64,000 nucleotides of DNA. It comes from Escherichia coli (GTDB lineage Bacteria > Pseudomonadota > Gammaproteobacteria > Enterobacterales > Enterobacteriaceae). Location: NCBI RefSeq assembly GCF_044324875.1, contig NZ_CP172185.1, one strand, 5' to 3'. The translations under genes and the position numbers were made by a program. Of this stretch, positions 25,339-26,092 are shown in pieces. A model generated the notes under the pieces. It searched no databases and was not told the origin of the DNA. It saw only the letters and a program-made list of their open reading frames with translations. Each line of letters begins with the position of its first letter. Within the stretch, counting starts at the first letter, position 1.

Positions 25339-25731
25339 TTATTCTGATTCATCTATGTCGAGACGAGCAAGGAAATTACGAATTCCTTCGCGTGACAAAA
25401 ATTGCGCAACTTTTTCCTGCTCACTGTGAGTCATGTTGTCTATTGCGCTGATGATTTGCCGATAAGCAGGGGTGCGAATACCCGGTGCGTATTCGGCAAG
25501 GGGTTCTTCGGCTTCCAGAAGCATCGGTGTGTTATGGAAGGCTGGCGTGTTCTGAATAAACTCGCAAACTTGCGTATCGACCAGAATAAGTCTGGCACGA
25601 CCGCCTTTCACGCCAGGAAATTTTTCCGTTTTCCAGCCTTTTTCTCTGATCCAACGGTTAACAGTTTGTTTAGCCACACCGAGGCATTCAGCCAGTTCTT
25701 CGGTGGTCATTTTATTGCGTAATCTTTTCAT
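25339..25731 (-). CDS. yfeD: Putative DNA-binding protein YfeD
   Basis: 130-aa ORF; paralogous to the adjacent yfeC (shared motif QT[VI]N[RK]W[IV]R[EK].GW.T...PGV.GG[RK]ARL). Confidence 0.8.
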   Translation of the reverse strand: MKRLRNKMTTEELAECLGVAKQTVNRWIREKGWKTEKFPGVKGGRARLILVDTQVCEFIQNTPAFHNTPMLLEAEEPLAEYAPGIRTPAYRQIISAIDNMTHSEQEKVAQFLSREGIRNFLARLDIDESE

Positions 25732-25732
25732 A

Positions 25733-26092
25733 TTATTTGCTATCGCGAATCCCTAAGCGTTGTAATAATCCGATAATCCCTTCCCGCAGAAGCAAGGATG
25801 TAAACTGTTTTTGTTCAACTGGCGTCATCTCTTTCGCCAGTGTCACCAGCAACACTTCAAGCGGCGCATCACCAGACAGGGCAGGCGCTTCTCCCTGACC
25901 TTCTGGACGTTCAGCATTGCGAATATATTCACGAACCTGTTCATTGACGTGAACCAGTCGGGCTTTGCCACCCTGGACGCCAGGTTTTGGTGACGTTGTC
26001 CAGCCTTCCTTGCGTACCCATTTATTAATGGTCTGCCGGCTATAGCCGGTCAGTCTGGCAAGTTCATCTGGCGTCATCCTCTCCTTGAACAT
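25733..26092 (-). CDS. yfeC: Putative DNA-binding protein YfeC
   Basis: 119-aa ORF (114 aa if started at the second Met); paralog of yfeD, 1-nt spacer between them. Confidence 0.8.
   Translation of the reverse strand: MFKERMTPDELARLTGYSRQTINKWVRKEGWTTSPKPGVQGGKARLVHVNEQVREYIRNAERPEGQGEAPALSGDAPLEVLLVTLAKEMTPVEQKQFTSLLLREGIIGLLQRLGIRDSK

Follow-up and report, generated by a model that had tools for sequence, protein, structure and literature searches.

The yfeC-yfeD locus of Escherichia coli, at positions 25,339–26,092 of the 64,000-nucleotide stretch of DNA analysed here (the window), appears to be an operon encoding two paralogous small site-specific DNA-binding regulators with a winged helix-turn-helix (HTH) of the type found in phage Mu; we put the probability of this reading at about 0.75. 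The genes are catalogued in E. coli K-12 as b2398 and b2399. A sequence-only reading of the window had noticed them as two adjacent minus-strand open reading frames (ORFs) of 130 and 119 amino acids separated by exactly one nucleotide, which the sequence bears out:

25733–26092, minus strand: yfeC coding sequence, 119 amino acids plus stop, ATG start; PF07037 match at E = 3.6e-51; RefSeq annotation.
25339–25731, minus strand: yfeD coding sequence, 130 amino acids plus stop, ATG start; PF07037 match at E = 2e-61 and HTH_17 match at 31.3 bits; RefSeq annotation.
25729–25735, minus strand: yfeC/yfeD junction TAA-T-ATG (TAA at 25735–25733, T at 25732, ATG at 25731–25729), a 1-nt gap.

The proposal that the two genes are tandem paralogs, which hung on there being similarity on proper alignment, holds well: BLASTP aligns the proteins end to end with 46 identities over 129 positions (36%), 54% positives and E = 5e-27, similarity far beyond chance. 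The N-terminal motif described from the sequence is exact (MTTEELAECLGVAKQTVNRWIREKGWKTEKFPGVKGGRARL in one protein, MTPDELARLTGYSRQTINKWVRKEGWTTSPKPGVQGGKARL in the other), and the C-terminal tail motif is matched approximately only (LLLREGIIGLLQRLGIRDSK and FLSREGIRNFLARLDIDESE). Both proteins belong to PF07037 (YfeC-like, formerly DUF1323; cutoff 22.9 bits), YfeD scoring 206.1 bits over residues 8–129 and YfeC 173 bits over residues 6–118, each against profile positions 1–122, in agreement with the DNA-binding, regulator-like character first attributed to them. In alignments and models alike they share the hallmarks of the family: a length of about 115–135 amino acids, an N-terminal HTH and a C-terminal REGI..L..RLGI tail.

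PF07037 is a very small family. A profile search of 1.84 billion cluster representatives returned 193 matches at E up to 0.001 and 71 at E up to 1e-10; many of the 193 are fragments, and the weaker end of the list consists of long proteins with multiple HTHs. Named full-length members among the stronger matches all come from Enterobacteriaceae, plus Chimaeribacter (Yersiniaceae). No phage or genuine plasmid copies were found by tblastn against phage and plasmid records, the apparent plasmid matches being chromosomes or chromosome fragments filed as plasmids, which we rejected.

Within its family the pair is old, conserved and under selection. In a scan using one genome per species, from which we took the best 80 of 208 loci (all Enterobacteriaceae), a YfeC-type gene is followed by a YfeD-type gene at every locus, usually between pdeA/tRNA-Ala and gltX. 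The tandem is intact in 78 of the 80, with an intergenic gap of -20 to +9 nt that is exactly 1 nt in 46; in the other two yfeC appears truncated or frameshifted and the gap is wider, both genes remaining recognisable. These exceptions (Escherichia sp. MOD1-EC7003, locus L001, and Enterobacter sp. EA-1, locus L077) are possible pseudogenes or assembly errors, and in the latter pdeA is fragmented and yfeD extended to 192 amino acids. Enterobacter sp. BIGb0383 (L062, 4244–5387) has three tandem copies with 4-nt overlaps, one YfeC-type and two YfeD-type, the latter 63% identical to each other, a further lineage-specific duplication. On a neighbor-joining tree all 79 YfeC and all 80 YfeD sequences fall into separate clades, and YfeC and YfeD of the same locus are only 34–46% identical, so gene conversion is not indicated. 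YfeC is the better conserved (median pairwise identity 73%, versus 54% for YfeD), and ratios of nonsynonymous to synonymous substitution rates of 0.03–0.20 indicate that both genes are maintained by selection. Chimaeribacter carries a single PF07037 gene at the syntenic position beside gltX, and this copy branches outside the combined YfeC and YfeD clade of Enterobacteriaceae (bootstrap 0.84 and 0.91). Together with the separation of the two clades, this dates the duplication to about the base of Enterobacteriaceae, consistent with the old duplication that the sequence-only reading had supposed.

AlphaFold2 models give both proteins a common layout: a domain of about 55 residues made of a strand, a helix, a recognition helix, a two-strand wing and a further helix, then a disordered linker, then a two-helix hairpin. 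YfeC was modelled alone (mean predicted local distance difference test score, pLDDT, 81.6), and YfeD was taken from a fused YfeC-(GGGGS)x6-YfeD construct with a paired 40-row alignment. A winged HTH is thus predicted in both, as the structure prediction and HTH detection proposed for the pair were meant to reveal. The segments are:

25913–26080, minus strand: YfeC N-terminal winged HTH, residues 5–60 (strand, helix 8–15, recognition helix 19–29, helix 51–59).
25862–25912, minus strand: YfeC linker, residues 61–77, with pLDDT below 50 at 63–72; unalignable and length-variable across genera.
25757–25861, minus strand: YfeC C-terminal hairpin, helices 78–88 and 91–112, pLDDT 92–96; motif EMTP.EQ...LLLREGI.GLL.RLGI.
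25549–25713, minus strand: YfeD N-terminal winged HTH, residues 7–61 (strand 156–158 to helix 202–210 in the fused model; subtract 149); HTH_17 at residues 8–50.
25363–25470, minus strand: YfeD C-terminal hairpin, residues 88–123 (helices 237–247 and 251–272 in the fused model, pLDDT 80–86; family alignment).

The mechanism that we favor follows this layout. Reading of the major groove would fall to the helix bearing Q-T-[IV]-N-[KR]-W, and the wing, which is the GW.T...PGV.GG[KR]A motif of the sequence-only reading and in YfeC runs through strands 33–35 and 45–48 carrying GVQGGKA, would make contact with the minor groove or backbone next to it. Oligomers, most likely formed via the C-terminal hairpin, which is probably an oligomerisation module, would occupy repeated half-sites and act mainly in repression. 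A single transcript would run from a conserved extended -10 promoter to a stem-loop common to gltX, with yfeD translationally coupled to yfeC, and the paralogs would have diverged to largely different sets of sites.

The closest solved relatives by sequence come from phage Mu: the MuA I-alpha domain (1TNS, profile E = 9.3e-5) and the DNA-binding domain of Mu repressor c (Repc; 1G4D, E = 0.018). A wing motif GW..R..GVKGGKA is common to the family and both structures. By hhalign the family matches full-length Repc with 94.9% probability (E = 4.4e-8) and a 14-member Repc family profile with 96.6% probability (E = 5.5e-10) over 109 columns, spanning the HTH into the hairpin (YfeC 2–110 to Repc 13–133). 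Repc itself narrowly exceeds the PF07037 cutoff (23.1 versus 22.9 bits, Repc residues 41–131). Most of the Repc signal comes from the N-domain. From these profile comparisons we regard homology of the N-domain to the Mu type as firm, and homology to the full architecture of Repc as likely but not proven. PF02316 (HTH_Tnp_Mu_1; cutoff 23.3 bits) is not reached by YfeC (14.6 bits, E = 0.041), and YfeD is not listed; the gltX-linked Chimaeribacter homolog exceeds it at 28.1 bits.

The likeness to Repc (196 amino acids; DNA-binding domain 1QPM/1G4D) and MuA I-alpha lies in the Mu-type winged HTH with its GW..(K/R)...GVKGGKA wing. In the full-length alignments with Repc the order of DNA-binding domain, variable spacer and helical segment E(L/M)(E/T)P.E....L.LL...G(L/I)..L is collinear, the hairpin falling on Repc 99–133, so that the helical segment may be a further point of likeness. 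Unlike Repc, YfeC and YfeD end at aligned Repc position ~133–140, without its last ~60 residues, which hold a second helical repeat and a tail controlling ClpXP degradation. The setting differs too: YfeC and YfeD are core chromosomal genes, syntenic in 80 species and with no transposase or phage genes nearby, where Repc is encoded at one end of a transposable prophage, diverging from ner, with the A and B genes after it. Mu Repc (L087, 342–929) seemingly contains two hairpin-like motifs, at residues ~103–132 (LINMIEELEPDEARKALKLLSKGGLLALM) and ~150–178 (IQTLMMLDALPEEKRKEILSKYGIHEQE), and two relatives, P0402 and P0403, keep the C-terminal half behind a different, HTH_3-type N-domain. A scan of IMG/VR gave 19 viral relatives, whose matches all end at about residue 76 (residues 1–76). 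The two that we inspected are not repressors; they (L100, 3950–4393; L106, 3914–4393) are terminase small subunits lying directly upstream of large terminase genes, with an HTH that has the RQT[IV]NKW recognition-helix motif and no GVxGG wing.

Association with DNA in vivo has been published for both proteins. Gao et al. 2021 (PMC8464067) tagged each and reported chromatin immunoprecipitation with exonuclease digestion (ChIP-exo), with 50 rows for YfeC and 43 for YfeD (about 41 binding sites), which supplies the ChIP-seq check suggested for the pair. The YfeC motif consists of TTC-rich inverted repeats 6 nt apart (MEME E = 7.1e-10), the YfeC peak at chaA has a signal-to-noise ratio (S/N) of 2057, and 40% of YfeC sites are intragenic, with targets that lack functional coherence (PMC8464067). 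RNA sequencing (RNA-seq) of a delta-yfeC strain found 205 genes changed, including 20 of the 50 YfeC-bound genes, and 16 of these 20 direct targets are repressed (PMC8464067). In the same strain yfeD rises by log2 4.3 (20-fold) and ybaQ, which is among the strong ChIP targets of YfeD, drops by log2 5.2 (PMC8464067), which fits repression of ybaQ by YfeD. As for phenotypes, a yfeC mutant is reported, according to the citation in PMC8464067, to release more extracellular DNA. A transposon-directed insertion site sequencing (TraDIS) paper describes delta-yfeC::kan E. coli K1 as growing normally in LB, colonising the neonatal rat small intestine more poorly and being less lethal, and transcription of LEE, the enterocyte effacement locus, is published as unaffected by yfeC. 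The label "function unknown" is therefore outdated in part.

Two of the published peaks read differently once remapped. We converted coordinates from NC_000913.2 to NC_000913.3 by a shift of 1978, which is consistent with the YqhC site landing in the yqhC-yqhD spacer. The single coordinate common to the YfeC and YfeD lists, 3332954 (NC_000913.2), is absent from every other regulator's list; originally credited to rplU/ispB for YfeC and to ispB/sfsB for YfeD (PMC8464067), it falls at +23 to +52 of the sfsB (nlp) reading frame (K-12 NC_000913.3 3334932–3334961; L086, 2433–2462). This site contains the inverted repeat CCCGC-N10-GCGGG and is YfeD's strongest peak (S/N 57.6); sfsB is not among the genes changed in the delta-yfeC list. 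The second peak is in the window:

26481–26514, no strand: published YfeC ChIP-exo peak labelled 'yfeC' (2516052–2516085 in NC_000913.2, remapped).

It covers the last 23 nt of alaX, the second tRNA-Ala gene, together with 11 further nt, immediately ahead of the alaWX terminator hairpin (~26514–26540), and lies ~390 bp from the yfeC start and 140–200 bp upstream of pdeA rather than at the yfeC promoter. It may be either an artefact of hyper-ChIPable tRNA DNA or a site proximal to pdeA, and once placed on alaX it no longer speaks directly for YfeC autoregulation.

Several observations weigh against the reading of the pair as site-specific, Mu-type regulators. The 'yfeC' peak is at the 3' end of a tRNA gene with high transcription, and several ChIP-exo peaks have exactly the position of a peak of an unrelated regulator (at mdtL, that of YdhB), so that some of the listed sites may be artefacts. 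The myc tag was attached at the C terminus, on the hairpin proposed to mediate oligomerisation, and in the tagged yfeC strain its cassette separates the two coupled genes. The increase in yfeD in delta-yfeC may be an effect of the deletion construct, a possibility raised by the absence of construction details from the paper (PMC8464067), and we found no DNA-binding data for purified YfeC or YfeD in the literature. On the structural side, the hairpin alone against the same Repc segment is not significant (E = 0.005–0.007, probability 5–7%), and a fold search of BFVD with the YfeC monomer gave no match at E = 0.001, Repc lying outside the top 50. The fused YfeC-linker-YfeD model has a predicted template modelling score of 0.27, with a flexible linker in each half, and is silent on partners.

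Other accounts of the pair explain parts of this evidence. The binding data could reflect architectural proteins of low specificity that coat arrays of direct repeats head to tail in the manner of Xis or BldC, many ChIP-exo targets being incidental. The best structural matches by Foldseek (fused model against the PDB, ranked on target-normalised scores since the size of the query weakened the E values) are Xis, BldC, RacA and pSK1 Par, all cooperative binders of repeated sites, and the intragenic 40% of YfeC sites, the incoherent targets and the peaks on a tRNA gene or coincident with those of other factors point the same way. We nevertheless consider this account doubtful: YfeC yields a defined MEME motif (E = 7.1e-10), each protein has only about 40–50 sites, S/N values of up to 2057 at chaA suggest discrete high-affinity sites, and 20 of the 50 bound genes change expression in delta-yfeC. 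YfeD reaches the HTH_17 cutoff (31.3 versus 27 bits), YfeC does not (20.9), and both fall below excisionase TIGR01764 (27.5 and 18.7 bits against a cutoff of 28.8); unlike excisionases, the pair has no integrase, recombinase or mobile element nearby and has the extra C-terminal hairpin. Tight, conserved coupling could instead serve to equalise the amounts of an obligate YfeC-YfeD heteromer joined through the C-terminal hairpins, whose motif is conserved in both proteins; one exact ChIP-exo site is shared, at sfsB, and formation of tandem pairs has recurred in the wider family (Yersinia, Photorhabdus, Pragia and locus L083, besides the Enterobacter sp. BIGb0383 triplet). An obligate complex seems unlikely, however, when the lists of 50 and 43 rows are nearly disjoint, with one identical coordinate, when peak widths differ (about 30 bp for YfeC, about 9 bp for YfeD), when YfeD evolves about twice as fast (median identity 54% versus 73%), and when single-copy members exist in Chimaeribacter and Frischella.

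Two further labels come from annotation and prediction. RASTA-Bacteria (2007) placed yfeD/yfeC among four new high-confidence E. coli type II toxin-antitoxin predictions. On that model one protein would be toxic, and the other would neutralise it and autoregulate the operon; the genes are small, adjacent and coupled as the model expects. The other three predictions (yafNO, ygjNM/higBA and sohA-yhaV) were reportedly confirmed later. The toxin-antitoxin label was repeated in the TraDIS paper. Yet these are paralogs with the same DNA-binding fold, so neither is toxin-like; searches of Pfam, NCBIfam and PADLOC returned HTH models only and no toxin family; delta-yfeC is viable with normal LB growth although yfeD is 20-fold up in a delta-yfeC strain; and the locus belongs to the core genome, is syntenic throughout the family and has no copies on plasmids or phages. 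We judge a toxin-antitoxin function very improbable. Less probable still is YfeD as an effector-responsive activator of the MerR family, the product name given by the RefSeq Prokaryotic Genome Annotation Pipeline (PGAP), or both proteins as LysR regulators, as in a 2016 table of E. coli transcription factors, and we give these names almost no chance of being right. Scores against MerR_1 (PF13411) are 12.3 and 12.6 bits against a cutoff of 21.6, and in place of the long coiled-coil helix after the wing and the effector domain the modelled proteins have a disordered linker followed by a short hairpin. PGAP also labels Mu repressor c 'MerR family', so the name reflects a shared superfamily fold. 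A LysR protein would be expected to have about 300 amino acids and a substrate-binding domain, whereas these have 119–130, with no LysR match at E up to 1.

The reading of the pair as Mu-type regulators gains context from a sister lineage. Small proteins of 114–133 amino acids that match both PF07037 and PF02316 occur in Photorhabdus, Yersinia, Serratia, Budvicia, Pragia and Frischella. These c-like proteins of Enterobacterales and Orbales have the same length and architecture as YfeC and YfeD and often come as tandem pairs. Their hairpin (Yersinia c-like) matches the family hairpin with 93% probability (E = 3e-7) using a profile of the C-terminal domain only, and on that alignment is clearly homologous to it. 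Unlike YfeC and YfeD, they form a separate clade and have a G-L-P Mu-type HTH instead of G-Y-S-R-Q-T, and the two Yersinia genes stem from a later duplication of their own (69% identity, bootstrap 0.95). The loci differ as well. In Yersinia entomophaga, Pragia fontium and one relative the order is mdh, an nlp-like HTH_35 gene (minus) divergent from two c-like genes (plus), and ispB; Photorhabdus has its c-like pair beside ispB, and in Frischella an HTH_35 gene is divergent from a single c-like gene beside proQ. The YfeC/YfeD locus is alaWX, pair, gltX. Phage Mu likewise has c and ner divergent, across a 170-bp control region, and Mu Ner, E. coli SfsB/Nlp and the Yersinia nlp-like protein, which is 65% identical to SfsB, all belong to PF13693. 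The likeness of the sister-lineage loci to Mu is confined to this retained divergent ner-like neighbor.

We put forward, tentatively and as something possible rather than probable, that YfeC/YfeD and Nlp/SfsB are the remnant of a Mu-type c/ner immunity switch fixed as a chromosomal regulatory module in Enterobacterales. On this view the two proteins would be repressors of the host that descend from Mu, or else the host stock from which the Mu repressor was drawn, and would control a Ner-like gene, with possible cross-talk with Mu-like phages. The ChIP-exo site that YfeC and YfeD share, at the start of sfsB, would be a surviving tie to that gene. In Yersiniaceae, Budviciaceae and Orbales the c-like genes keep their divergent place beside nlp. 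In Enterobacteriaceae nlp (sfsB) stays beside ispB without an adjacent c-like gene, and the sole family members are the gltX-linked pair. In E. coli K-12 sfsB follows ispB with nothing between, and a search there for a remnant of a c-like gene found none. As the gltX-linked lineage is a separate clade and has a single copy in Yersiniaceae, a move from the nlp locus is not established. Control of sfsB by YfeC/YfeD, autorepression and shared ancestry of the whole c/ner module are all speculative, and we treat the Mu-like reading as a lead of moderate strength. If true, it would give two orphan E. coli regulators and SfsB a concrete testable target, and would provide a case in which a phage and core chromosomal regulation have an immunity switch in common.

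The genes, the family and the genome-wide binding data are already public, and the pair itself is already known. The present evidence clears up its classification, in that past labels (LysR, MerR, excisionase, AlpA, toxin-antitoxin) give way to a place with the Mu-type repressor c lineage, and it re-reads two published ChIP-exo peaks, 'yfeC' as the alaX 3' end and rplU/ispB or ispB/sfsB as the inside of the sfsB 5' end. The placement with Mu repressor c, the divergent pairing with nlp in the sister lineage and the remapped shared sfsB site may be new; we found no paper in the open-access literature linking the family to Mu repressor c or nlp.

Candidate transcription and translation signals around the pair are as follows:

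26133–26141, minus strand: candidate yfeC promoter, extended -10 TGTTATAAA, proposed from upstream alignment.
26097–26104, minus strand: Shine-Dalgarno-like block CAGGnAAT, conserved upstream of the first ATG (alignment).
25305–25333, no strand: stem-loop with T runs on both sides between convergent gltX and yfeD; 12-pair stem, 7 GC (terminator scan).

The element TGnTATAA is nearly invariant upstream of yfeC in 21 aligned regions from about 15 genera; a simple sigma-70 scan did not find a -35/-10 pair on the yfeC strand. The stem-loop is likely a bidirectional terminator marking the end of the yfeCD transcript, and the TAA-T-ATG junction makes translational coupling of yfeD to yfeC probable. 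An 11-mer, CTTTACAGGAA, lies in the yfeC promoter spacer (26145–26155), ~95 nt upstream of lpxP (47645–47655) and ~95 nt upstream of sfsB (L086, 2308–2318), with two copies in the window against 0.04 expected. We dropped it as a candidate operator; it is unconserved even within Escherichia and coincides with no ChIP-exo peak. A near-perfect inverted repeat, TTGCGAG-N4-5-CTCGCAA, lies between the alaW and yfeC promoters in most genera (loci L023–L080), at a position corresponding to 26180–26200 in the window, ~75 nt upstream of the yfeC -10; in Escherichia and Salmonella the right arm alone is intact (CTCGCA, 26180–26185). The alaWX promoter at 26252–26280 (TTGACA-17-TATGAT, 11/12 consensus) and its GC-rich downstream segment are almost invariant in about 15 genera, far better conserved than the adjacent sequence upstream of yfeC.

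The window proteins are the same proteins as K-12 YfeC and YfeD, with full-length hidden Markov model matches, the sole point of difference being the YfeC start codon. RefSeq PGAP chose the 119-amino-acid start, and the K-12 RefSeq record, in which YfeC is named a transcriptional dual regulator, has a 114-amino-acid form that begins at the second ATG (26077). At the start, the sequence M[FIL]KERM is kept in 20 genera with synonymous Arg codon changes, which favors the first ATG. Several E. coli strains carry the 1.1-kb stretch with 100% identity, and 5425 of 5426 complete E. coli genomes have a match to it. The placement between gltX and tRNA-Ala genes given from the sequence is right: RefSeq orders the locus gltX, yfeD, yfeC and two tRNA-Ala genes, with gltX (23873–25288, plus) convergent with yfeD and the tRNA-Ala(GGC) genes (26313–26388 and 26428–26503, plus) divergent from yfeC. 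The pair is flanked by gltX and alaWX-pdeA, with no phage genes at the locus.

A link of the pair to cyclic di-GMP or biofilm is possible but weak. In Enterobacteriaceae the pair is nearly always beside pdeA (MASE1-GGDEF-EAL; 26651–28900 in the window), and in Serratia liquefaciens (L092) a family member lies directly downstream of a MASE1-PAS-GGDEF-EAL gene. The target lists include dgcC (adrA), pdeN and bluF for YfeC and pdeG and bcsC for YfeD; adrA expression is unchanged in delta-yfeC. Elsewhere in the neighborhood, a Val-Val-Val-Lys tRNA cluster at 23218–23614 (minus) lies upstream of gltX, and several long listed ORFs that cross these tRNA genes and the tRNA-Ala genes are not genes.

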